The notes beneath the pieces were generated by a model. The model searched no databases. It saw nothing but the letters and a program-made list of their open reading frames with translations, and had not been told where the DNA came from. A stretch of 34,550 nucleotides of DNA, taken from the sequence record SRR31156797_9558; one strand, 5' to 3'. The first letter of the stretch is position 1, and each line of letters starts with the position of its first letter. This document shows positions 19,188-31,149 of this stretch, piece after piece. Made by a program: the position numbers and the translations under genes.

Positions 19188-20474
19188 TTAAAGATTTATT
19201 TCGCCAAATACATTCTGATCTTGATCTATCTCAACCAATTTTACTTCAATTATTTGGTTTTCCATGCCACTTTTATATTTTACTTTTGTCCGGATATAAT
19301 TATCTGTAAAACCATATATGAAGCCATCTTTTATCTCTTTTTCAAATAATACTGGTCTCGTAGTACCCAGGTTTTCATTCAGAAATTTAACTAAAAACTC
19401 ATCTGATAACCTATGTAAGTTTTTACTTCTATCATTTCTATCTTTTTTGTTGACTTGATCTTTCATTTTTGCCGCTTTCGTTCCCGGTCTTTCTGAATAA
19501 GTGAATACATGTAGGTATGATATATCAAGCGACTTAAGAAATTCGATAGTTTGCTGGTAATCTTCATCAGTTTCACCCGGTACTCCAACAATTACATCAG
19601 CTGCAATGCAAGCATCCGGTATTTTAGCCTTGATTTTTGCAACTCGCTCAGCATAAATTTCAGTAGTGTACCTGCGATTCATGCTTTCGAGTAATTTATT
19701 GGTACCACATTGTAGTGGAATGTGGAAATGAGGCATAATCATCTCATTTTCTGACACAAGATTAATAACTTCGTTTGTGATAAGGTTGGGCTCAATGCTG
19801 CTTAATCTTAGTCTTTTGAGATTAGTTTTGTTTACAATTTCAGATAACAATTGACCAAAAGTTTCATTGTGTTGTCTGCCAAAATCTCCCACATTAACTC
19901 CTGTTAAAATAACTTCCTTTGAGCCTTGTGATATGATTTCGTTTAAATCTGTTAGCACTTCTTCTATTTTAGGGCTTCGACTTAATCCTCTTGCCATAGG
20001 TATTGTGCAGTAAGCGCAGAAATAGTTGCAGCCATCCTGTACCTTAAGAAAAGTTCTGGTTCGATCAGAAGAGGACCAGGCTGAATCAAAGCTAGTGATT
20101 TCTTTGTATGGATGTCTATGGATTTTTTCTGAACCATTATCTTCAATGAGTTCGAAAATTTTGAATTTTTCCTCGTTTCCCAAAATCAAATCTACATTCT
20201 TAAGGGCATCTAATTCCTCTGGTCTTAATTGCGAGTAGCAGCCCATAGCTATAATTTTTGCGTTGGGATTTGATCTTTTTGCTTTTGAAATAATATTTCG
20301 TCCTTTTTTTTCAGCCAGTGAAGTAACTGCGCATGTATTTATGACAACTATATCTGAATCTATGAATTCATTAGTTCTTTGGTATCCTTTTTTCTCAAAT
20401 TGGGCTGCGAGTGAGGATGTTTCTGCAAAATTTAATTTACATCCAAGTGTATAAAAAGAGACTTTTTTGTTCAT
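19188..20474 (-). CDS. mtaB: tRNA ms2t6A37 methylthiotransferase (radical SAM)
   Basis: TLGCKLNFAET, INTCAVT, RTRTFLKVQDGCNYFCAYCTIP.ARG, HVFTYSERPGT and G.TDNY. The start is placed at MNKKVSF (20474). Confidence 0.93.
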   Translation of the reverse strand: MNKKVSFYTLGCKLNFAETSSLAAQFEKKGYQRTNEFIDSDIVVINTCAVTSLAEKKGRNIISKAKRSNPNAKIIAMGCYSQLRPEELDALKNVDLILGNEEKFKIFELIEDNGSEKIHRHPYKEITSFDSAWSSSDRTRTFLKVQDGCNYFCAYCTIPMARGLSRSPKIEEVLTDLNEIISQGSKEVILTGVNVGDFGRQHNETFGQLLSEIVNKTNLKRLRLSSIEPNLITNEVINLVSENEMIMPHFHIPLQCGTNKLLESMNRRYTTEIYAERVAKIKAKIPDACIAADVIVGVPGETDEDYQQTIEFLKSLDISYLHVFTYSERPGTKAAKMKDQVNKKDRNDRSKNLHRLSDEFLVKFLNENLGTTRPVLFEKEIKDGFIYGFTDNYIRTKVKYKSGMENQIIEVKLVEIDQDQNVFGEINL

Positions 20475-20541
20475 ATCATCACAAATTCCTGTTCCTATTC
20501 TTCTTTTTGATTTTGGTAATACTAGAATTACAATAATCATA

Positions 20542-20614: not shown

Positions 20615-20662
20615 TTGTTTTGTTTAAAAAATCTACCGAAATCATAAACAAAAATTAAACAG
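20615..20662 (+). promoter_or_regulatory. Candidate CarH/LitR operator upstream of the regulator gene
   Basis: TAAACA at 20645 and 20656 (11-bp period, TnnACA), plus an inverted TGTTTA at 20621. Confidence 0.6.
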
Positions 20663-20690
20663 TGGGGTTTACCCTTAAAAGGTTGGAATT

Positions 20691-21581
20691 ATGTATTCTA
20701 TAAAAGATTTGGAACGTTTAACAGGAATTAAGGCTCATACTATACGTATTTGGGAAAAGAGGTATAGTATTATTGAGCCTGACCGAACGGATACCAATAT
20801 CAGAACATATTGTGATGAAGATGTAAAGAAACTGTTGAATGTTGCAGTACTCAATAAGCATGGAGTTCGTATTTCGAAATTAGCAGAAATGACTGATCAG
20901 GAACTTCGTGAAAAAGTTGTTGGTCTAAATGTTGGTCTTAATACCTCCAGTGTTCAAATAGAGCATCTCATTATAAGCATGATTGATTTGGATGAAATTA
21001 AATTTGAATCGGTCCTAAATAGATCTATCATAAAGAACGGATTTGAGGAAACAGTAAAGAATTTGTTATTTCCCTTTTTTGATCGAGTGGGAGTTTTATG
21101 GCAAACCGGATCAATTAATCCGGCGCAAGAACACTTTGTGTCGAATTTAGTAAGACAAAAACTATTTGTGGCAACAGATCGTATAGTGCCTGAATCAAAC
21201 TCAAAGTCTCCTACATTTGTGTTTTTCTTACATGAGCAGGAATTACATGAAATTGGATTACTTTTTTATCATTACATTGCAAAGAAATGGGGTATGAAAA
21301 CCGTTTACCTAGGTCAAATTGTACCTTTTGATGATTTAAAACTGGTTTACAAAAAAATAAAACCTCAGTATCTGTTTTCTTCATTTACTTCTTCAATGGA
21401 AGAAGGTTGGATTAAAAAATATTTAAAAGAATTGGCTAAAACATTCAGTGATATTAAAATTTTCGCCAGCGGTTATCAGATGGCCAATATTAGTAATTTA
21501 CCTGAAAATGTAATTGCAGTGAGAGATATTGAGGTGTTTAAAGAAGAGATAAAGAAGATTTTAGCTGAGAACGAGCAATAA
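20691..21581 (+). CDS. MerR-family cobalamin-binding regulator (CarH/LitR type)
   Basis: MerR HTH YSIKDLE.LTGIKAHTIRIWEKRY, W-x9-EH (WQTGSINPAQEH), ExHxxG (ELHEIG), YLG and SFT. Confidence 0.9.
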   Translation: MYSIKDLERLTGIKAHTIRIWEKRYSIIEPDRTDTNIRTYCDEDVKKLLNVAVLNKHGVRISKLAEMTDQELREKVVGLNVGLNTSSVQIEHLIISMIDLDEIKFESVLNRSIIKNGFEETVKNLLFPFFDRVGVLWQTGSINPAQEHFVSNLVRQKLFVATDRIVPESNSKSPTFVFFLHEQELHEIGLLFYHYIAKKWGMKTVYLGQIVPFDDLKLVYKKIKPQYLFSSFTSSMEEGWIKKYLKELAKTFSDIKIFASGYQMANISNLPENVIAVRDIEVFKEEIKKILAENEQ

Positions 21582-22105
21582 TGAAAGTTTTTTTGATATT
21601 GCTCTTCATATTCCCTTCAGTAGTTTATAGCCAATTGGAATCTAATTATACTATGAAAACTGTTGATTCACTTGATTTGGAGAAATATTCCGGTACCTGG
21701 TATGAAATATATAGATTACCAATGCGTGCAGAAAAAGATCTTGTGAATGTAACTGCTACATATACCTTGAAAGAAAATGGAAAGATTGGGGTATTAAATC
21801 AAGGTTTCAAGCACAGTCCTAATGGAAAACATAAAAAGGCTAAAGCTATTGCATGGAGGCCGAATAATGATAATCAGGGGGCTTTAAAGGTGAGATTTTT
21901 TTACTTAATAAGGTCTTCATATAATGTTTTTGCAATAGCTGATGATTACAGTTGGGCTATTGTGGCAACAGACAATAAGGATTACGCCTGGATATTATCT
22001 CGTAACCCTGAAATATCTTCCGGATTGGATGCTCAACTTTTACAAAAAGCAGAATCTATTGGTATCAATACGGCTCAATTTGAAAAGACGCTTCAGCAAT
22101 GGTAA
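21581..22105 (+). CDS. Bacterial lipocalin (Blc-like)
   Basis: LDLEKYSGTWYEI.R, NVTATY, LKVRF, DDYSWAIV and YAWILSR.P. Sec signal with no lipobox Cys. TAATG overlap with the regulator stop. Confidence 0.92.
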   Translation: MKVFLILLFIFPSVVYSQLESNYTMKTVDSLDLEKYSGTWYEIYRLPMRAEKDLVNVTATYTLKENGKIGVLNQGFKHSPNGKHKKAKAIAWRPNNDNQGALKVRFFYLIRSSYNVFAIADDYSWAIVATDNKDYAWILSRNPEISSGLDAQLLQKAESIGINTAQFEKTLQQW

Positions 22106-23394
22106 GTCAAAAACTAGTGATACATTGGTTTAGAAGAGACCTTCGTTTAGATGATAATAAATCACTTTTTAGTGCCTTAACCTCTGGTTTTAAAGTTATT
22201 CCCTTATTTATTTTTGATACTGAGATTTTAGATGAATTGCCTGATGATGATAGGCGTGTATCGCTGATTTATAATAGGTTGATCGAGCTAAGCGAACAGC
22301 TTGGAAAATATAATAGTAGTATATTTATTGAGTATGGTAAGCCGTATGAGGTTTTTGAGCGACTTCTTAAAACCTATTCAATTGATGCTGTATATACAAA
22401 TGAAGATTATGAGCCGTATGCCATTGCCCGCGATAGGAAAATTGAAGCGCTTTTAAAGCGTAATGGTGTTAAATTCCAGTCTTTTACAGACCAGGTTTTG
22501 GTTCACCCATCCCTAGTGAAGAAGAAGGATGGCAAACCTTATACTGTTTTTACACCATGGTCAAAACAATGGCTTCAGAAATTTGATCCTTCAAGTTTGG
22601 AGAATTATCCTTCAGAGCAACATTTAAAGAATATATTACCAGAACATTTTGATTTGCCAGATCTTAAAGAATTAGGTTTTACTTTTCAGAAAGTAGATGT
22701 AAATACATCTTTTCCTTCAACGAAAATATTAAGTGCTTATGCAGAGCAGAGGAATTTCCCAGCACAAAATGGAACCTCCAGATTGAGTGTAGCTTTAAGA
22801 TTTGGCATAATTAGTATTCGAAAACTTGCAGCGCAGAGTTCTAAATCAAAAGTTTATTTGAATGAGCTTGGATGGCGTGAGTTTTATATGATGATTCTAT
22901 ACTTTTTCCCCAAAGTCGTCACTGAATCATTTAAATCTAAGTATGATAATATTCAATGGCGCAATAACAAAAAGGAATTTGAGTTATGGAAATTGGGGAA
23001 AACCGGGTACCCTATTGTTGATGCCGGTATGCGTCAATTATTGGAGTCAGGGTATATGCATAACCGTTTAAGAATGATTACCGCAAGCTTTTTAACTAAA
23101 CATTTGTTAATTGATTGGCGATGGGGAGAAAGTTGGTTTGCAGAAAAGTTATTGGATTATGAGTTAGCTTCAAATAATGGAGGGTGGCAGTGGGCTGCCG
23201 GAACAGGATGCGATGCTGCTCCTTACTTTCGGGTATTTAATCCAACTACTCAAACCGAGAAGTTTGATCCTGAATTGTCGTTTATCCGCCGCTGGGTGCC
23301 TGAATTTGAGACGTTTAATTATACGCAACCCATTGTAGAGCACAAATTTGCAAGGCAAAGAGCATTAGATATATACAAGAAAGCACTGAATTGA
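22099..23394 (+). CDS. phrB: Deoxyribodipyrimidine (CPD) photolyase / cryptochrome family
   Basis: WFRRDLRL.DN, TSRLS, EL.WREFY, GKTGYPIVDAGMRQL..GYMHNRLRM, IDWRWGE.WF, NNGGWQW and PYFRVFNP. Confidence 0.94.
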   Translation: MVSQKLVIHWFRRDLRLDDNKSLFSALTSGFKVIPLFIFDTEILDELPDDDRRVSLIYNRLIELSEQLGKYNSSIFIEYGKPYEVFERLLKTYSIDAVYTNEDYEPYAIARDRKIEALLKRNGVKFQSFTDQVLVHPSLVKKKDGKPYTVFTPWSKQWLQKFDPSSLENYPSEQHLKNILPEHFDLPDLKELGFTFQKVDVNTSFPSTKILSAYAEQRNFPAQNGTSRLSVALRFGIISIRKLAAQSSKSKVYLNELGWREFYMMILYFFPKVVTESFKSKYDNIQWRNNKKEFELWKLGKTGYPIVDAGMRQLLESGYMHNRLRMITASFLTKHLLIDWRWGESWFAEKLLDYELASNNGGWQWAAGTGCDAAPYFRVFNPTTQTEKFDPELSFIRRWVPEFETFNYTQPIVEHKFARQRALDIYKKALN

Positions 23395-23422
23395 TTTAAT
23401 TAGAAAATAATTTGATCAATTA

Positions 23423-23454
23423 TTTGAATCGTTTGTTTAAATATTATAAATTTG
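23423..23454 (+). promoter_or_regulatory. Complete Bacteroidota sigma-A promoter with a TGTTTAA site in the spacer
   Basis: TTTG (23423-26), a 20-nt spacer, then TAAATTTG (23447-54). TGTTTAA lies at 23434-40. Confidence 0.7.
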
Positions 23455-23471
23455 ATTAAAATCGCCAACCT

Positions 23472-24392
23472 ATGAATATATTTGTTTTCGGAGGAACAGG
23501 AATGATTGGAAGAGCATTTTGCGAATATGCCATGCTTAATGGGCACAAACCAATTATAGTCTCTCGTTTTCCAGAAAAACACGACCTACCTTACCAGGTT
23601 TTTGGTTATCCGGAAGCATCTTCAACAAATGTTCAGCGCTTAATGGCAGGAGGATTTTCAGTTGTTAATTTAAGTGGTGCTAATATAGCTGAAAAGAAGT
23701 GGACAGCCGAACGCAAAGATATGCTTGAGAAGAGCAGAGTTGAAATTATTGATAGGGTTGAGTTATTTATCCAACAAGCCCCACAGGAACCTGATGCAAT
23801 TCTTCAGGCATCAGCCATTGGTTATTATGGAAATACTGGTGATAAAGAAATAGTTGAAAAAGATGAATCGGGTGATGGATTTCTCGCTGAACTAGCCGTG
23901 AAATGGGAAAAGCGATTCAAGGCTATTGAATTGGAAGATACTCGAAAAATGATACTTCGAACAGGCGTTGTTTTATCCAATAAGGGTGGAATGTTGCCTC
24001 GTATTTCCAAACCTTTCAAAATGTTTATGGGTGGTGTAATAGGATCAGGAAAACAATACGTTTCCTGGATTCATATGCAAGATCAGATTAGAGCAATGCT
24101 GCATTTGCTTGAGGATGATTTCGCCAATGGTGTGTTTAATTTAACTGCGCCTAATCCAGTAACAATGAAAGAGTTTTCAAAAACTTTAGGAAAAACACTG
24201 AAAAGACCTTCTTCATTTCCTATTCCTACATTTATTGTAAAAATGCTTTATGGTCAAATGGCCAAAGAAACAATGCTTTCTGGAACAAGAGTGCTTCCTA
24301 AGAGGTTGGAGGAGTTTGAATTTGAATTTATTTACACTGATCTTGAACTGGCATTGAAGAATTTACTTATTAAGCGTAAGGGAAAAGAATAA
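23472..24392 (+). CDS. TIGR01777-family (YfcH/SDR39U1-like) NAD(P)-dependent epimerase/oxidoreductase
   Basis: GGTGMIG, VNLSGANI...WT...K....SR, ASAIGYYG, GFLA.L...WE, RTGVVL, GSGKQY.SWIH..D and FNLTAPNPV. Confidence 0.93.
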   Translation: MNIFVFGGTGMIGRAFCEYAMLNGHKPIIVSRFPEKHDLPYQVFGYPEASSTNVQRLMAGGFSVVNLSGANIAEKKWTAERKDMLEKSRVEIIDRVELFIQQAPQEPDAILQASAIGYYGNTGDKEIVEKDESGDGFLAELAVKWEKRFKAIELEDTRKMILRTGVVLSNKGGMLPRISKPFKMFMGGVIGSGKQYVSWIHMQDQIRAMLHLLEDDFANGVFNLTAPNPVTMKEFSKTLGKTLKRPSSFPIPTFIVKMLYGQMAKETMLSGTRVLPKRLEEFEFEFIYTDLELALKNLLIKRKGKE

Positions 24393-24425
24393 TTTTTTTT
24401 ATTTCGGTAGCAACAAAAAAAAATA

Positions 24426-24462
24426 TTGTTTGTTTAAGAATTAGTCTTTTAAACATAAACAA
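24426..24462 (+). promoter_or_regulatory. Candidate CarH/LitR operator upstream of the TonB-dependent receptor
   Basis: TTGTTTGTTTAA-N16-CATAAACAA, the same layout as TTGTTTTGTTTAA-N15-CATAAACAA upstream of the regulator. Confidence 0.55.
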
Positions 24463-24467
24463 GTATT

Positions 24468-26861
24468 ATGCAAAGAATATTATTGATTTTGTTGTTTACT
24501 GCGGTAGCAACAGGAGTATTTGCGCAAAAGGCAAAGCTTGAAGGAAAAGTAATTGATCCTGTAAATAATGAGCCTGTCCCTTTTGCCAATATAATTGTTA
24601 GCGGTACAACAATAGGTGCCATTTCAGATATAGATGGTAATTTTAATTTTACCGGGTTAGAACCTGGCTATATTAGTCTGGAAGTAAGTTCAATTGGTTA
24701 CCAGAGAATTAAAACTAAGCGTATACTTGTTACAAATGCAAAAACTGCATATTTGGAAATAGCGCTTGAACCTGTGGCAGAGCAATTAGATGTTGTAACT
24801 GTGACAGCCAGTAGGTTTAGGCAAAAAGTGGAAAGTCCTGTTTCAATGCGCTCTATAGGTGTAGCAGAAATAGAAAAAAATCCCGGAGGTAATCGCGATA
24901 TTTCAAAAGTTTTACAATCATTTCCCGGTGTAGCTTCAACACCTGCATTTAGAAATGATGTAATAGTTCGTGGAGGAGGAGCTAACGAAAATTCCTTTTA
25001 TTTGGATGGTGTTGAAATTCCTAATTTGAATCACTTTGCTACGCAAGGTGCTTCAGGAGGTCCTGTAGGTATAATAAACGTTGATTTTGTGCGTGAGGTA
25101 GATTTTTACTCCGGCGCGTTCCCTGCTAATAGAGGAGGTGCTGTAAGTTCAGTTTTAGACTTTAGACAGATAGATGGAAATAAGGAAAAAATGAAGTTCA
25201 GAGCTACAGTTGGAGCTTCCGACCTGGCGCTAACTGTTGATGGTCCAATAAGTGAGGATGCAAGTTTGATTTTTTCAGTCCGTAGATCTTATTTGCAATT
25301 CTTGTTTAGTGTGCTGGAACTTCCTTTTTTACCAACCTATAATGATGCCCAGTTTAAAAGTCGTATTAGATTAAATAAGAAAAACGAGATTACCTTAATT
25401 GGGTTAGGTGCATTGGACCAATTTGAGTTGAATTTGGATGCAAATGAAACACCTGATCAAAGATATATTTTGAATTACTTACCAGTGAATGAACAATGGA
25501 ACTATACATTTGGTATTGTCTACAAGCATTATAGAGATCGCGCATACAATACCCTAGTGGTTTCCAGAAATCACTTAAACAACTCTGCATTTAAATATCA
25601 AGATAATATTGAAGCACCTGAAAATTTAACACTCAATCTAAGTAGTGACGAAATAGAAACAAAAATCAGATATGAAGATAATATCAGATATGATGATTAT
25701 AAATTAATTTATGGAGCAGGTTTAGAGTATTCTGAATATTACAATAGTACATTTAGTAAAGTGTTTTTAAATGGTGAAACATTTGATTTGGACTATTCTT
25801 CCAGGTTAGATTTTTTCAATTATAATGCCTTTGGACAACTTAGTCGTGGTTTTTTCGGAAAGAGGTTGAATTTATCCGTTGGATTAAGATTTGATGGAAA
25901 TAATTATGATAAAGATATGGCGAATCCATTAAAACAATTTTCACCGCGATTCTCTGCCAGCTATGGCCTTAATGAAAAATGGTTCGTGAATTTCAATACT
26001 GGTCGTTTTTATCAAAAACCATCATATACCACATTAGGTTATCGTGATGCAGATGGAGTTTTAGTGAATAAGGAAAACGGAATTAAATATTTCTATGCAG
26101 ATCATTATGTTGCAGGTTTGGAATATAGACCAAACGATGAAAGCCGTATTACCATTGAAGGGTTTTATAAAAATTATGGCGATTACCCTTTTTCAGTAGT
26201 TGATGGTGTAGCTATTTCAGGTAAAAGTGCTGATTTTGGGGTGTTTGGAGATGAAGAGGTTACAAGTACTGGAGAAGGAAGAGCATATGGTGTTGAGTTT
26301 TTGATTCGCCACAATGATATTTTTGGTATAAACTTAATTAGTGCATTGACACTCGTACGAAGCGAATTTAAGAATCTAGAAGGTGGATATGATCCTTCTG
26401 CCTGGGATAATCGGATTTTATATAATTTAACTGCCACACGAAAAATTGGTAAAAACTGGGATGTAGGAATGAAATGGAGATATGTTGGTGGAGCTCCTTA
26501 TACTCCTTTTGACTTAGAAACATCGAGCCTGGTGCAGGCATGGGATAGAAGGAATCAACCCTATTTGGATTATAGTCAGTTTAATTCTAAAAGACTTGGT
26601 GCTTTTCATCAATTAGATGTTCGGGTGGACCGACAATTCTTTTTTAATAAATGGACACTGATGTTATACCTGGATATTCAAAACCTTTACAATTTCAAAG
26701 CAGATCAGCAAGATAATTACATAAACGAGGATGAAGATGGTAATGTAATTATTGAAAATCCTGGTGCAGATCCTGAAGATCAACGTTATGTGCTAACCCG
26801 AATACCAAGTGATGGGGCTGGTACTGTTTTACCAACATTAGGTATTATGATAGAATTTTAA
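24468..26861 (+). CDS. TonB-dependent receptor with an N-terminal CarboxypepD_reg-like domain
   Basis: Signal peptide, EPVPFANI...GA.SD.DG.F, LDVVTVTA, plug motifs PGV...VRGG...EN..YLDG.EI.N.NHF and GAFPA..G...SSV, barrel LDVRVD..F, and terminal Phe. Confidence 0.93.
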   Translation: MQRILLILLFTAVATGVFAQKAKLEGKVIDPVNNEPVPFANIIVSGTTIGAISDIDGNFNFTGLEPGYISLEVSSIGYQRIKTKRILVTNAKTAYLEIALEPVAEQLDVVTVTASRFRQKVESPVSMRSIGVAEIEKNPGGNRDISKVLQSFPGVASTPAFRNDVIVRGGGANENSFYLDGVEIPNLNHFATQGASGGPVGIINVDFVREVDFYSGAFPANRGGAVSSVLDFRQIDGNKEKMKFRATVGASDLALTVDGPISEDASLIFSVRRSYLQFLFSVLELPFLPTYNDAQFKSRIRLNKKNEITLIGLGALDQFELNLDANETPDQRYILNYLPVNEQWNYTFGIVYKHYRDRAYNTLVVSRNHLNNSAFKYQDNIEAPENLTLNLSSDEIETKIRYEDNIRYDDYKLIYGAGLEYSEYYNSTFSKVFLNGETFDLDYSSRLDFFNYNAFGQLSRGFFGKRLNLSVGLRFDGNNYDKDMANPLKQFSPRFSASYGLNEKWFVNFNTGRFYQKPSYTTLGYRDADGVLVNKENGIKYFYADHYVAGLEYRPNDESRITIEGFYKNYGDYPFSVVDGVAISGKSADFGVFGDEEVTSTGEGRAYGVEFLIRHNDIFGINLISALTLVRSEFKNLEGGYDPSAWDNRILYNLTATRKIGKNWDVGMKWRYVGGAPYTPFDLETSSLVQAWDRRNQPYLDYSQFNSKRLGAFHQLDVRVDRQFFFNKWTLMLYLDIQNLYNFKADQQDNYINEDEDGNVIIENPGADPEDQRYVLTRIPSDGAGTVLPTLGIMIEF

Positions 26862-26877
26862 TTGAAATTTATTTACC

Positions 26878-27594
26878 ATGAAACATATAGCATTTATTTT
26901 ATGTATTCTGATTTTTGCAAATCATTTATTGGCACAGGAAAATATTGCAGCTAATTCTCAAGCTGAGGGTAACGCTTTTCAGTTAACTTTTAAAATAGGA
27001 GAGTCTCACAATCATCCTAGTCTGGCTATCTGGTTAGAATCTATTGATGGTGAGTTTATTCAAACTTTATTTGCAACTAAATCTGTGGCAACAGGCATGT
27101 ATGGATATAAACAAGCTGGTGATTTAAAGTGGGTTAAAGGTCCGGGTAGAGCAGAAAGACCTGCAGCATTACCAGTTTGGTTTCATAAACGTGATAATCA
27201 AAAAATAGAAGGTGCAATTTTACCCTCTCCTGAAGATCCTGTAGTGGATGCTTATACAGGTGCAACTCCTAAAAAAGATTTTATTTTAGACCTAAAAGCG
27301 GATAAAAAGCATACTGGAAAGGTAAAGATATTGGTTGAATTTAATCAACCATGGGATGTGAATGATTATTGGACTAATGGTAAATATCCTGAAAATACGC
27401 AGTATCTAACTTCATGTCAACCTGCTTTGGTTTATGCTGTAGAGATCGATTTGGATAATTTAATGTCTGAATACTATCTGAACCCTATCGGACATGGTCA
27501 TCCTTATGGTGCAGATGGTCGATTGTATACCAATCTTACGACTTTTACATCTGCACTGGATATATTCAAGTGGATAAAGCTAGAAGTGAAATAA
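26878..27594 (+). CDS. Exported DUF2271-like protein with a putative flavinylation motif
   Basis: Signal peptide, P.LAIWLE..DG.FIQTLFAT, RP.ALPVW and VDAYTGATP. Confidence 0.7.
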   Translation: MKHIAFILCILIFANHLLAQENIAANSQAEGNAFQLTFKIGESHNHPSLAIWLESIDGEFIQTLFATKSVATGMYGYKQAGDLKWVKGPGRAERPAALPVWFHKRDNQKIEGAILPSPEDPVVDAYTGATPKKDFILDLKADKKHTGKVKILVEFNQPWDVNDYWTNGKYPENTQYLTSCQPALVYAVEIDLDNLMSEYYLNPIGHGHPYGADGRLYTNLTTFTSALDIFKWIKLEVK

Positions 27595-27595
27595 T

Positions 27596-30241
27596 CTATT
27601 GATTTTTAATAATCTTTTTGACGAATTGTGTTCCTGATTTCGTTTCAACTTTTAGGAAATAGAGACCATCAATAAGATTACTTATATTCAAGTGTATATG
27701 TGATTCGTCCTTTTGGAATTGTTTTACCAGTTGACCTTTGCTATCATAAATATGTATAGATTTTGACTGTTCAGGTAATTTAATTGCCAGTTCATTAGAG
27801 AAAGGATTAGGATAAACAAACATTTGATTTATTGCATTATCGGGACTGTCAATGCTTAGAATGTATTGTTGAGCAGCTTGTATTTGATCAATTAAAATGC
27901 TTTCATGATTAGCTGTTGTCATTACATATTGAAGTACAATACTATCTCCTGCTTCCAAAACTAGACCATCTGTAGAAACTAAATGTGCTACATCGTCACC
28001 TGTACTTAGTCCCGCTTCTTCTCTTTCTGTTGTCAAAGCAAACCATCTTTCTTCATTAGTAAAACCATCTGTAATATCAATGCCTTCTGTTTCTCCATTT
28101 AGTTCAAAAGCATAATGCTTAAAAGACAATTCTAAAAGTTTTATTCCAAATAATCTGCTGTTCCCAACTACATTTTCACAAATAGCAATTTGATGTTCAT
28201 CATTAAAGTATGCATGATTATTTCTGAGTGGTTCAATATCCCAATCGAAGAAGAGTCCGGCGTGAAAATCATCATAGGTATTGCTACTTTTATTAATCAG
28301 CATATACTCAAATAATAATGTATTTTCCATATCTGGGTCACTTACAGCAGTTACTTTTTGTTTGATGTAAATATTCATGCTATTATTCTTATTGGTATCA
28401 ACCATTTCAGCATGAGTTATCACATTTTCATTTATATCAGTTTCAAAAGAAATATTTTTAGTAATGCTAAATGGCTGTGCATCCAAAAAACAACTCATTA
28501 TTTGTGTGCTACTATTTCCGTATAATAATCCGGCTTCCCAAACCATATTCCGGGAATTATCAAGCCAAATACCATTTCCGAATATAGGGTCAACACTTGA
28601 AAATCCGATTCTACCATTTGAAGGTATAGTAGCATTGAGATTGTTAAGTGTAATATCTGTAAAAGATTTATTGGCTGTAAAAGTGTGTAGCCGATCATAA
28701 GTTCTCGCACCATCATTGATGGTGAATTTGATGGTAGCCAATTGGTCAAATTGAATTTCTTCCGAAATATAAATGGGTATCTCATTTTCTCCAATTATGT
28801 AAGAACTTCCTGAATTTATAATTCCTGCGTTAATGGAAGAGATTACTGGTGTTATATCAGGATGTAATGATTCAATTTCAATATTGATTACGGCACTTTG
28901 TAAATGATTAGTGAATACTCCGGTTAAATATACTGTATCGCCGGCCATCGCATCGCCAATTATCTCTACATCTGACAATGTTACCCCGCTAATTAGTGTG
29001 TCAGTTAGTGCAGCATAACCATCAACCCTGCCGGAGCCAAGTTTGTTGGCAAAAATTACATTTTGAGGTATTGTATCAAGGAAATAAGTAGTGTTTAATA
29101 ATTGTTGTTTTATTTGTTCAGCATTTAAGTGTGGTCTGTTGCTTTTAATCAGACCTGCTATGGCTCCAACAATTGGTGCGGCATAACTGGTTCCGTTTCC
29201 AAAACCGTAGCCGTTATTTTGACCTAAAAGATAAATTTCACTTCCTGGTGCTGAGATATCAACGGAATAACCATAAGAACTTCCAGACCATCTTTGATCA
29301 TTGATATTAGTAGCCGCAACAGATAATACTTCAGGGTAACTGGCCGGGTAAAAAAGCTTTTCATCTGCGTCGTTTCCTGCCGCTGCAACAACTAATGCAC
29401 CTTTGTCAATGGCAGCATATTGCACAATATCTCGCCCAAAAGCACTGGATATATATCCTCCCCATGAGCAAACTATTATATCAGCACCTTGATCCGCAGC
29501 ATAGATAATGCCTTCATAAGGGGTATTTAATTCACCTTGCGCATTCATGGTTTTCACAGGTAAATACTTTAAGTTGTATCCAACTCCGGCCATTCCAATT
29601 CCATTATTGGTATTTGCAGCAACAATTCCTGCAACCTTGGCACCATGAAAGTCAGCATCATATTGTGGATTATTATTGTTTTCACTTAAGTCCCAGCCAT
29701 AATAATTATCGATAAAGCCATCCTGATCATCATCTATTCCATTGATCGGGTCATCTGTATTATATGCGATCTTGCCATCCAGGTCTTCGTGTGTCAAATC
29801 TGTCCCAGAATCAACAATTCCAATAACCACCGTTGCATTGCCTGTTTCAATATCCCATGCATCAAACATATTCGTGATGTTAATGTAATATTGAGAACTC
29901 AACCCGGGGTCATCAGGGACCTCAAATAGCTTTACTTCTGGTTTGTACTCAATATATGCTATATTGGGATTATCAATTAAGCTGCTTAATAATTGTTTTT
30001 GTTTATCAGTGGAAGTTTGAATGGCATAGATATTCGAAAGCCTTGACGCAAATTTGGAATGTCGTTTATTATAATGGTTCTCGAATAACGGAATAAGCTC
30101 AATCTTATAATTTTCCTCTATTTCAACTACTTGTTTGTCATCAGTTGAATTTAGTTTCAAAATAAGCGTTTTTGATTCTTGTTGTCCAACAAGTGTAATT
30201 GTATAAAAAAAAGCAAAAATATAGAGTAGAACAGTCCGCAT
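27596..30241 (-). CDS. S8 (subtilisin-like) serine peptidase with a T9SS type-A CTD
   Basis: Triad IGIVDSG / FHGAKVAG / GTSYAAP, oxyanion AAAGN, insert NGIDDDQDGFIDNYYGWD, and CTD VYPNPF...IYDSKGQLV...GLYFL...KKIIK. Confidence 0.94.
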   Translation of the reverse strand: MRTVLLYIFAFFYTITLVGQQESKTLILKLNSTDDKQVVEIEENYKIELIPLFENHYNKRHSKFASRLSNIYAIQTSTDKQKQLLSSLIDNPNIAYIEYKPEVKLFEVPDDPGLSSQYYINITNMFDAWDIETGNATVVIGIVDSGTDLTHEDLDGKIAYNTDDPINGIDDDQDGFIDNYYGWDLSENNNNPQYDADFHGAKVAGIVAANTNNGIGMAGVGYNLKYLPVKTMNAQGELNTPYEGIIYAADQGADIIVCSWGGYISSAFGRDIVQYAAIDKGALVVAAAGNDADEKLFYPASYPEVLSVAATNINDQRWSGSSYGYSVDISAPGSEIYLLGQNNGYGFGNGTSYAAPIVGAIAGLIKSNRPHLNAEQIKQQLLNTTYFLDTIPQNVIFANKLGSGRVDGYAALTDTLISGVTLSDVEIIGDAMAGDTVYLTGVFTNHLQSAVINIEIESLHPDITPVISSINAGIINSGSSYIIGENEIPIYISEEIQFDQLATIKFTINDGARTYDRLHTFTANKSFTDITLNNLNATIPSNGRIGFSSVDPIFGNGIWLDNSRNMVWEAGLLYGNSSTQIMSCFLDAQPFSITKNISFETDINENVITHAEMVDTNKNNSMNIYIKQKVTAVSDPDMENTLLFEYMLINKSSNTYDDFHAGLFFDWDIEPLRNNHAYFNDEHQIAICENVVGNSRLFGIKLLELSFKHYAFELNGETEGIDITDGFTNEERWFALTTEREEAGLSTGDDVAHLVSTDGLVLEAGDSIVLQYVMTTANHESILIDQIQAAQQYILSIDSPDNAINQMFVYPNPFSNELAIKLPEQSKSIHIYDSKGQLVKQFQKDESHIHLNISNLIDGLYFLKVETKSGTQFVKKIIKNQ

Positions 30242-30435: not shown

Positions 30436-31149
30436 ATGAATTGTATTATCATTGATGACGATGCACTTTCGAGAAAAATAATTGAAGAGTTTGTAAAAAA
30501 GTCAGATGCCTTAAACTTAATAGAATCTTACGACAATGCGGTAGATGCCATTCAGGCATTTAATGGCCCTGAGTCAATAGATCTTGTTTTTCTTGATATT
30601 GAAATGCCCGAAATGTCAGGATTAGATTTTCTAAATACATTAGACAATCCTCCACAAATTATAATAATCTCAGGTAAGGAAAAATATGCATTGGAAGCCT
30701 TTGAATATGATGTGACAGATTATTTGCTGAAACCAGTAAGTTTACCACGTTTTATAAAGGCAACTAATAAAGCGCACAAACGCTTCAGCGATGCTGCACA
30801 AGTATCAGGAGAAACCACTGATGAAATTTTTATTAAAAAGAAGAATTCTACACTTGTTAGGCTTAATTATAGTGACATTTTATACATCGAAGCACTTGAA
30901 AATTATGTAATTGTAGCTACCTATGATCAGAGGTTTACAATACATTTTACGATGAAGGCGATCACGAATAAATTACCTGAAAATAAGTTTAAACGAGTAC
31001 ATCGATCATATATCATCAATGTAAATAAGATTGAATTGATTGAGGATAATACAATTGTAATTAAAGAGCAAACAGGCTCAAAAGTGATTCCAATTGGAAA
31101 ATCATACAGAGATGGTTTGATGGATGACCTGAATTTAATATCTAAATAA
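30436..31149 (+). CDS. LytTR-family response regulator
   Basis: CIIIDDD, FLDIEMPEMSG, DYLLKP, ILYIEALENYV, F.RVHRSYIIN and IPIGKSYR. Confidence 0.95.
   Translation: MNCIIIDDDALSRKIIEEFVKKSDALNLIESYDNAVDAIQAFNGPESIDLVFLDIEMPEMSGLDFLNTLDNPPQIIIISGKEKYALEAFEYDVTDYLLKPVSLPRFIKATNKAHKRFSDAAQVSGETTDEIFIKKKNSTLVRLNYSDILYIEALENYVIVATYDQRFTIHFTMKAITNKLPENKFKRVHRSYIINVNKIELIEDNTIVIKEQTGSKVIPIGKSYRDGLMDDLNLISK

Follow-up and report, generated by a model that had tools for sequence, protein, structure and literature searches.

CarH/LitR regulators are known to turn on genes for carotenoids and photolyases, and the CarH operator of Thermus thermophilus consists of tandem 11-bp direct repeats. Here we describe a stretch of DNA of 34,550 nucleotides (sequence record SRR31156797_9558; "the window" hereafter denotes this whole stretch), in which a gene for a CarH-like regulator heads a block of six co-oriented genes. 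The block ends with a gene for a TonB-dependent receptor (TBDR) and a gene for a protein that we call P0002 (Table 1). A repeat found before both carH and the TBDR gene suggests that the TBDR-P0002 pair is very probably co-regulated with carH, and CarH and light are probably the regulator and the signal of this pair. With somewhat less assurance, we favor the view that the whole region is part of a CarH regulon to which a module for outer-membrane uptake, with a candidate flavoprotein, also belongs.

Several described systems are close to parts of this locus. Proteobacterial DUF2271 proteins occur in gene clusters for which a role in the periplasmic reduction of ferric iron has been proposed (PMC8238504; bioRxiv 10.1101/2024.10.16.618771), and the first of these reports describes flavinylation of DUF2271 proteins by ApbE at the motif [S/T]GA[S/T] (Meheust et al. 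2021, PMC8238504). In Riemerella anatipestifer, the Fur box consensus is given as ATTTAGAATTATTCTAAAT (PMC5609570). A MerR-like regulator of another member of the Bacteroidota, MliR of Bizionia argentinensis, affects iron and TonB-receptor genes and is described as having no effector-binding domain (PMC9478572). We considered MliR as a relative of the window regulator and rejected it: the window protein has, by its motifs, a complete B12-binding module and thus belongs to a different family. In a paper on Chryseobacterium lacus, a LitR-like regulator is merely speculated on.

By its motifs, the window regulator belongs to the adenosylcobalamin (AdoCbl)-dependent CarH/LitR class. Pfam identifies a MerR_1 domain (E 6.1e-14, residues 2-70) and a B12-binding_2 domain (E 4.1e-10), with no match to the B12-binding family PF02310 at E 0.01. 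Residues 1-224 align with Thermus thermophilus CarH (5C8D/3WHP; E ~1e-17) with both B12 motifs in register. The sequence-only reading from which this study started had described these motifs as intact, and they are: the W-x9-EH motif is WQTGSINPAQEH (residues 137-148, aligned to the 5C8D motif), and the ExHxxG motif is ELHEIG, aligned to ERHEIG of the Thermus protein. The W-x9-EH motif and the axial histidine are invariant in all 29 CarH homologues that we collected. Against the NCBIfam equivalog model NF052513, the regulator scores 89.3 bits, far below the cut-off of 400, and we therefore regard it as a divergent CarH member and not as an equivalog by that model.

An inverted repeat upstream of carH and of the TBDR gene

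The repeat was discovered by aligning the regions upstream of carH in the window and in two relatives, L001 and L002, in both of which it is conserved. In the 34.5-kb window, the pattern TTGTTTA-N18/19-TAAACAA has exactly two occurrences, one upstream of carH and one upstream of the TBDR gene, whereas 0.05 are expected and none of 100 shuffled sequences contained two or more. The everted form TAAACAA-N13-TTGTTTA, with at most two mismatches, has exactly three matches in the window, before carH, the gene for a short-chain dehydrogenase/reductase (SDR) and the TBDR gene (simulated mean, 0.86 per window). The third half-site of the carH array, xxGTTTA, recurs in L001, L002 and L104. An operator-like array of alternating 7-bp half-sites, TAAACAA-N13-TTGTTTA-N18/19-TAAACAA, thus appears to precede each of three transcription units. 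The six genes probably form three units (carH-lipocalin-photolyase, SDR and TBDR-P0002), each with an operator-like site of its own, and not one operon. The 9-mer TTTGTTTAA was also tried as an over-represented site and dropped, since its 3 copies against 2.43 expected are not significant, although their positions are of note.

The repeat is retained in relatives. In the closest of these, the arms before the TBDR gene are kept and the spacers differ, with no mismatch in L002 and L161 and one in L001 and L003. We also analyzed 80 loci from species-representative genomes, L001 and L002 among them, which were fetched with an alignment of 16 P0002 relatives and in which neighboring genes were identified by tblastn with the window proteins. 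These loci and the window (1,232,693 bases) contain 12 exact copies of the repeat, 3 directly before carH and 9 before the TBDR-P0002 module. When one mismatch and a spacer of 17-20 nt are allowed, the same 1.23 Mb contains 34 copies. Eight are located elsewhere, and 26 precede the module (in 21 loci), carH (3) or an SDR-P2271-TBDR operon (L047, where the full inverted repeat has one mismatch).

The repeat also occurs before carH genes distant from the module. In the 12 genomes examined that have a repeat-bearing module, carH is unlinked from the module and, in all but the genome of L104, is also apart from photoprotection genes. The carH promoter nevertheless has the repeat in 10 of the 12, about 40-80 nt before the start codon and with zero mismatches (L081, L083, L104), one (L082, L099, L101, L107) or two (L102, L103, L105); L100 has no repeat there, and L106 has only a half-site. 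In two of these loci, carH (L082, 2354-3250; L083, 2382-3230) is preceded by the repeat, is apart from photolyase, and is followed by a same-direction gene of the metallo-beta-lactamase fold. Moreover, a crtI-crtB operon and crtD-cruF are arranged divergently in four relatives examined, and the promoter region between them, a canonical CarH target, carries the repeat with one or two mismatches in all four.

The regulon had been proposed to serve uptake rather than local pigment synthesis. This opposition finds no support in these four relatives, which encode crtI-crtB/crtD-cruF clusters elsewhere in the genome with the repeat in the promoter region. The underlying observation that the cluster itself lacks carotenoid genes was borne out: among 29 window open reading frames (ORFs) scanned with Pfam (a first set of 11 and 18 of the ORFs of at least 100 amino acids elsewhere in the window), none is a carotenoid gene or apbE.

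We also searched 401 genomes sampled from the order for CarH and P0002-family proteins. Where the P0002 family was found, CarH was found in 89 genomes and not found in 46; where it was not found, the corresponding numbers are 77 and 189. The odds ratio for co-occurrence is 4.7, uncorrected for ancestry. The module was fetched from 60 CarH-positive and 40 CarH-negative genomes; four loci whose gene start lay beyond the fetched stretch were left out. Among the rest, a repeat with at most one mismatch occurs no more than 260 nt before the module in 30 of the 59 genomes with CarH and in none of the 37 genomes where CarH was not found (Fisher p = 1e-8, with shared ancestry left uncorrected). Given the repeat at unlinked carH promoters, its restriction to CarH-bearing genomes, its presence at crt targets and the conservation of the CarH motifs, CarH is the most economical candidate for the protein that would bind it.

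Table 1. Genes and operator-like sites of the six-gene block and its borders (window coordinates)
Feature	Position	Strand	Details
MtaB gene	19188-20540	-	Divergent; bounds the six-gene block
Inverted repeat TTGTTTA-N18-TAAACAA	20620-20651		Proposed CarH operator (autoregulation); 39 nt before carH start; exact match
Everted dyad TAAACAA-N13-GGGTTTA	20645-20671		Third half-site of the carH array; within 2 mismatches
carH-like regulator gene	20691-21581	+	296 aa; MerR helix-turn-helix and B12-binding domain
Blc-type lipocalin gene	21581-22105	+	174 aa; Lipocalin_2 E 1.3e-38 (Pfam), Blc E 7.6e-35 (NCBIfam)
Class I-type DNA photolyase gene	22099-23394	+	431 aa; DNA_photolyase and FAD_binding_7 (Pfam)
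Everted dyad TGATCAA-N13-TTGTTTA	23413-23439		Weak operator-like site; 33 nt before SDR start; 2 mismatches
TIGR01777 (YfcH-type) SDR gene	23472-24392	+	306 aa; DUF1731 tail; 297.5 bits vs cut-off 207.35
Half-site array GCAACAA-N13-TTGTTTA-N19-TAAACAA	24410-24462		Proposed CarH operator; ends 5 nt before TBDR start
Everted dyad of the TBDR array	24410-24436
Exact inverted repeat of the TBDR array	24430-24462
TBDR gene	24468-26861	+	797 aa; CarbopepD_reg_2 and Plug
P0002 gene	26878-27594	+	238 aa; predicted secreted beta-sandwich protein, distant DUF2271 relative
S8 peptidase gene with type IX secretion system (T9SS) sorting domain	27596-30241	-	Convergent; bounds the block
LytTR response regulator gene	30436-31149	+	Beyond the cluster

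The ORF list gives exactly six plus-strand ORFs in the block, as had been described. The first three overlap at their stop and start codons (carH/lipocalin by 1 nt and lipocalin/photolyase by 7 nt), also as described. Photolyase and SDR lie 77 nt apart, SDR and TBDR 75 nt, and TBDR and P0002 16 nt. Pfam and NCBIfam agree with the family names originally given to the regulator, lipocalin, photolyase, SDR and TBDR; for the photolyase, the top NCBIfam models all score under their own cut-offs. The nearest public contigs are Salinivirgaceae metagenome-assembled genomes, and that of L001 has an identical gene order, with protein identities of 59-95%. Synteny of the S8/T9SS peptidase and LytTR regulator genes after the cluster is retained only in L001 and L003 (Salinivirgaceae). 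An Rfam scan of the window returned zero matches, and thus no cobalamin riboswitch was found. Scans for sigma-70 promoters and terminators yielded counts equal to chance, with all 4 terminator-like sites on the minus strand, and were uninformative for Bacteroidota promoters.

Contigs at least 95% identical to the window were found in four metatranscriptome runs of one study, which represent at most three samples. These contigs cover parts of all six genes, although carry-over of DNA is possible. One contig (20974-22660) spans carH, lipocalin and photolyase, another (26784-27374) spans the TBDR/P0002 junction, and among the contigs listed, none spans the photolyase/SDR or SDR/TBDR junctions. 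Gaps between contigs (for example, at 22840-23093 and at the SDR/TBDR junction) are uninterpretable, and the contigs carry no information on transcript ends, levels or response to light. Contigs from two runs of one sample (X4 and X5) both start at 24470, which is 2 nt inside the TBDR ORF and shortly after the repeat. Since contigs cannot define a 5' end, this coincidence is a mere hint.

Additional copies of the repeat are found near other genes. In two Salinivirgaceae-like genomes, an exact copy is located about 50 nt before a Carboxyl_trans gene of the methylmalonyl/propionyl-CoA carboxyltransferase type (L222, G283:C1:1021864-1021895; L221, G015:C51:508-540). A copy with one mismatch precedes the orthologue in G001 (L245, 1396-1428), and none was found in G011. 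This gene may be a further regulon member tied to B12-dependent metabolism. The complete genome G283 also has exact copies before an SDR-DoxX gene pair next to a DUF2867 gene (L220, 1501-1533 and 1655-1686, two sites 150 nt apart), and before a SpoIIE/PP2C phosphatase gene and an SRPBCC gene (L224, 1501-1532, and L226, 1501-1533, respectively); these genes are possible regulon members.

Other upstream motifs were observed. The motif TGTTCCCGATTAGTAACA recurs before distant P0002 paralogues that have no adjacent TBDR gene in CarH-negative genomes (L127, L144, L155), and TTCCCGATT(A/C) lies inside the repeat spacer of two CarH-positive loci, L192 and L215. A palindrome, TTGACAATTGTCAA, precedes distant P0002 paralogues in L132 and L146, with the variant TTTGTCAA in L153.

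The TBDR-P0002 module and its possible cargo

P0002 has 651 database relatives at E <=0.001. Cultured bacteria are represented among them: protein L21SP5_03165 of Salinivirga cyanobacteriivorans is a P0002 homologue with 62% identity, and the module also occurs in the isolate of locus L057, in which it is unlinked from carH. Among the 80 loci, a TBDR gene adjoins the P0002 homologue, in either gene order, in 72, and in each of the other 8 the contig ends next to the P0002 gene on one side. Other genes of the window block are far less common as neighbors: the TIGR01777 SDR in 10 loci, photolyase in 5 (plus one distant copy), lipocalin in 3 and carH in 2 (L001 and L002). In a second set of 100 loci, photolyase (7), SDR (12) and lipocalin (5) are found beside the module in several gene orders. 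Most module loci are located amid unrelated housekeeping genes, including dnaN/plsY, pyrBI, nqr, gap and others. TBDR-P0002 is a self-contained two-gene module that is old and present across Bacteroidales and some other phyla; it was found in 135 of the 401 sampled genomes. In three more genomes, carH is directly beside TBDR-P0002, either divergent from it (L183) or upstream (L189, L219). Because no photolyase, SDR or lipocalin gene was detected in the fetched stretches, these linkages look independent.

By gene neighborhood alone, the idea of a regulon would look weak. The sequence-only reading had in fact held that a lack of linkage to CarH/LitR in related genomes would speak against it. The genes are indeed mostly unlinked, and a judgment based on linkage would therefore have wrongly rejected the regulon. 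The proposal that the regulon reaches the last two genes is thus retained in modified form. Comparison supports it strongly, as the repeat stands before both carH and the TBDR gene, is kept at unlinked loci and is confined, before the module, to CarH-positive genomes, but the genes are probably divided among three units and linkage is rare.

The TBDR has a Plug domain (E 1.7e-10, residues 120-223) and an N-terminal carboxypeptidase-regulatory-like domain. No Pfam barrel family matches at E 0.01; its length of 797 amino acids and conservation over that whole length fit a barrel. A SusC/SusD pair is not indicated, as the gene adjoining the TBDR is P0002 and not a SusD partner, and the match to the SusC model is confined to its 144 N-terminal positions. 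Against sequences of the Protein Data Bank (PDB), the sole match is the N-terminal SusC-type domain, with no match to a solved BtuB.

P0002 has a hydrophobic N-terminal leader, and its relatives show lipobox-like leaders that contain cysteine. The protein had been called DUF2271-like, a name that survives only in part: P0002 itself has no Pfam or NCBIfam match, whereas 9 of 16 relatives match PF10029 below its threshold (11.8-19.6 bits vs a cut-off of 27.3; best E 8.1e-4). In addition, one database relative is annotated as a DUF2271 protein, and a neighboring protein-atlas cluster is partly so annotated. The family shares the stretch D-A-Y/I-T/S-G-A-T-P (DAYTGATP in P0002), in which four positions (D124, G128, T130 and P131) do not vary among the 16 aligned sequences. 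Its TGAT core (residues 127-130) fits the [S/T]GA[S/T] motif, and ApbE is present in all five relatives searched. P0002 is thus a probable substrate of ApbE, with Thr130 of TGAT as the predicted flavinylation site. Histidine clusters are also conserved (HNHP at 44-47, H103 and GHxH at 205-208).

Structure comparisons added little to this picture. An AlphaFold model of P0002 is a beta sandwich (pLDDT 78). Comparison with PDB sequences found nothing (best E 0.91), and Foldseek found no PDB match at E <=0.001. In a VIA-align comparison with 48,161 chains, the highest Z was 6.3, for generic C2-like beta sandwiches that provide no functional lead. A predicted complex of TBDR residues 115-797 with P0002 residues 21-238 scored 0.00 and 0.00, which is evidence neither for nor against binding.

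Regarding cargo, a cofactor, a metal chelate and a lipophilic pigment had all been suggested. Of these, a metal chelate (iron) fits best, because of the analogy with proteobacterial DUF2271 proteins and because Fur boxes replace the CarH-type site in some genomes that lack CarH. A Bacteroidota-type Fur box with at most three mismatches precedes the module in 5 of 35 CarH-negative genomes, 0 of 59 CarH-positive genomes and 2 of 500 random windows. No Fur box was found in our window, where the best matches have 5 to 7 mismatches (7 of 19 positions before the TBDR gene). The presence before the module of a CarH-type site in some genomes and of a Fur box in others suggests an exchange of regulators. 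Rfam found no cobalamin riboswitch near the module in 40 CarH-negative loci; its only matches there are tRNAs and two DUF805b RNAs (L132, 5195-5227; L146, 1421-1453). With modest confidence, we propose that the module imports a metal chelate (iron) and that this import is coupled to a periplasmic reductase with covalently bound flavin, and iron as the specific cargo is a tentative choice.

A proposed mechanism and its alternatives

We hypothesize that, in the dark, CarH oligomers loaded with B12 would occupy the repeat sites and repress transcription, and that light or a lack of B12 would release CarH from them. Release would lift repression not only of carH and TBDR-P0002 but also of DNA photorepair and of carotenoid genes encoded elsewhere. 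The TBDR would act as a TonB-dependent outer-membrane importer with P0002 as its secreted or lipoprotein partner, and their task would most likely be the uptake of a ferric or other metal chelate together with flavin-mediated reduction in the periplasm. In its fullest form, which is possible but which we hold only loosely, this model implies that in non-phototrophic Bacteroidales a B12 photoreceptor gates TonB import and a covalently flavinylated periplasmic reductase, that light turns on the uptake of metal (probably iron), and that the module has passed back and forth between Fur and CarH control.

Several observations weigh against these proposals. Physical linkage of carH and the module is rare (2/80 and 4/100 loci), and a good repeat is missing upstream of the module in 29 of the 59 genomes that have CarH. 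A syntenic group in which the module is linked to dnaN has a good site in 0 of 17 loci (two mismatches in 1 and at least three in 16), yet CarH is present in all 8 genomes of this group that were searched. An everted-dyad interpretation of the module promoters in the dnaN group was dropped, as it had too many mismatches by eye. Given these 29 genomes and the whole dnaN group, membership in the regulon would be lineage-specific. Genome-wide, copies with one mismatch are at the level of a reversed control (18 vs 21 and 16 vs 12), and exact copies number 1-4 per genome vs 0-2 in the reversed control. Single sites therefore mean little without conservation, and genome-wide one-mismatch scans were not used to call regulon members. 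The Fisher tests are uncorrected for shared ancestry, P0002 misses PF10029, and the weak matches of its relatives span only profile positions 4-40 (to 71 in two). Finally, Fur boxes precede the module in only 5 of the 35 CarH-negative genomes.

The architecture of the repeat also departs from that of the Thermus thermophilus operator and of other characterized CarH operators. This raises the question of whether the repeat is real and shared but has another binder, so that a different transcription factor or an extracytoplasmic function (ECF)-type sigma promoter drives carH, crt and the module while CarH acts elsewhere. The everted TAAACAA-N13-TTGTTTA can indeed be read as AAC-N16-GTT, which resembles an ECF promoter. 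However, each arm is the exact reverse complement of the other and both are conserved to the same degree, a pattern easier to reconcile with a symmetric DNA-binding protein than with an asymmetric -35/-10 pair. The repeat is also found at carH's own promoter in 10 of 12 unlinked cases, as autoregulation predicts, and is missing before the module in all 37 CarH-negative genomes. We therefore consider another binder unlikely. Another possibility is that TBDR-P0002 merely neighbors a photoprotection operon, that its repeat is non-functional, and that the pair answers another cue such as iron. The housekeeping surroundings of the pair in most loci, and the adjacency of carH only in the closest relatives within the 80-locus set, are what chance neighbors would show. 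Nonetheless, the repeat recurs before the module across many contexts and in both gene orders, the module repeat is confined to CarH-bearing genomes, and the window lacks the Fur box that might accompany an iron response. Mere proximity is thus the least probable of the explanations discussed here.

CarH might instead serve mainly as a B12 sensor, with TBDR-P0002 importing or processing corrinoids, such that loss of AdoCbl through scarcity or photolysis lifts repression in a feedback loop. In characterized systems, apo-CarH does not repress, so CarH targets would also be induced by a lack of B12, and the repeat before the carboxyltransferase gene (exact in two genomes and with one mismatch in a third) would connect CarH to B12-dependent metabolism, a link drawn from the gene family. 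This corrinoid-uptake alternative otherwise finds little support, and we judge it improbable: cobalamin riboswitches were found neither in the window nor near the module in the 40 CarH-negative loci, the TBDR matches no solved BtuB in sequence, and the Fur boxes point toward iron. We continue to favor light-responsive control by CarH of a module that may import a metal chelate.

Comparison with known systems

A full-text literature search combining CarH, TonB-dependent and photolyase found no reports, with subscription journals outside its coverage. Searches for CarH/LitR with TonB and regulon, or with Bacteroidetes and B12, returned nothing relevant among the matches listed, and the SignatureFinder paper contains no neighborhood data for TonB or Bacteroidota. 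The features that appear to be new are the operator architecture, the presence of an importer and a flavoprotein candidate in the regulon, and the apparent replacement of a CarH-type site by a Fur box in other lineages. If the proposed regulon is correct, light/B12 signaling would reach nutrient uptake in a large group of Bacteroidales from sediments, mats and the sea. The analysis also yields a defined candidate operator for Bacteroidota CarH (TTGTTTA-N18/19-TAAACAA, joined at N13 by a third half-site), a concrete prediction for a widespread two-gene module, flavinylation at Thr130, and an apparent case of one module swapping its regulator.

Like the DUF2271 (PF10029) proteins of PepSY-like/DUF4198 iron-reduction clusters, P0002 is a small beta protein, predicted to be secreted, with a TGAT motif and, among its relatives, weak profile similarity. 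It also shares with those systems a link to iron, here through Fur boxes in some module-bearing genomes. Unlike the DUF2271 domain of about 135 residues, mature P0002 has about 215 residues, and the similarity is limited to the N-terminal strands. DUF2271 clusters contain PepSY, DUF4198 or adjacent apbE genes, whereas the partner of P0002 is a TBDR; genes for PepSY-like proteins, DUF4198 or ApbE were found neither among the annotated recurrent neighbors of 31 representatives nor in the window. With respect to Fur-regulated TBDRs of Bacteroidota, such as those of Riemerella anatipestifer, the orthologous modules in 5 of 35 CarH-negative genomes bear the same type of box, but the window module lacks it and has a CarH-type repeat instead.

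A further comparison is that with the CarH/LitR systems of Thermus thermophilus, Myxococcus xanthus and Bacillus megaterium. The window regulator resembles these proteins in its MerR helix-turn-helix, B12-binding module, W-x9-EH motif and His-on motif, and the predicted regulon resembles theirs in having a putative operator at the regulator's own promoter and at carotenoid genes, and a photolyase gene in the same operon. In place of the tandem direct repeats of the solved Thermus complex, the candidate operator consists of alternating inverted 7-mers at spacings of 18/19 and 13 nt. Also unlike the known CarH/LitR regulons, that of the window would take in an outer-membrane TBDR and a candidate periplasmic flavoprotein.

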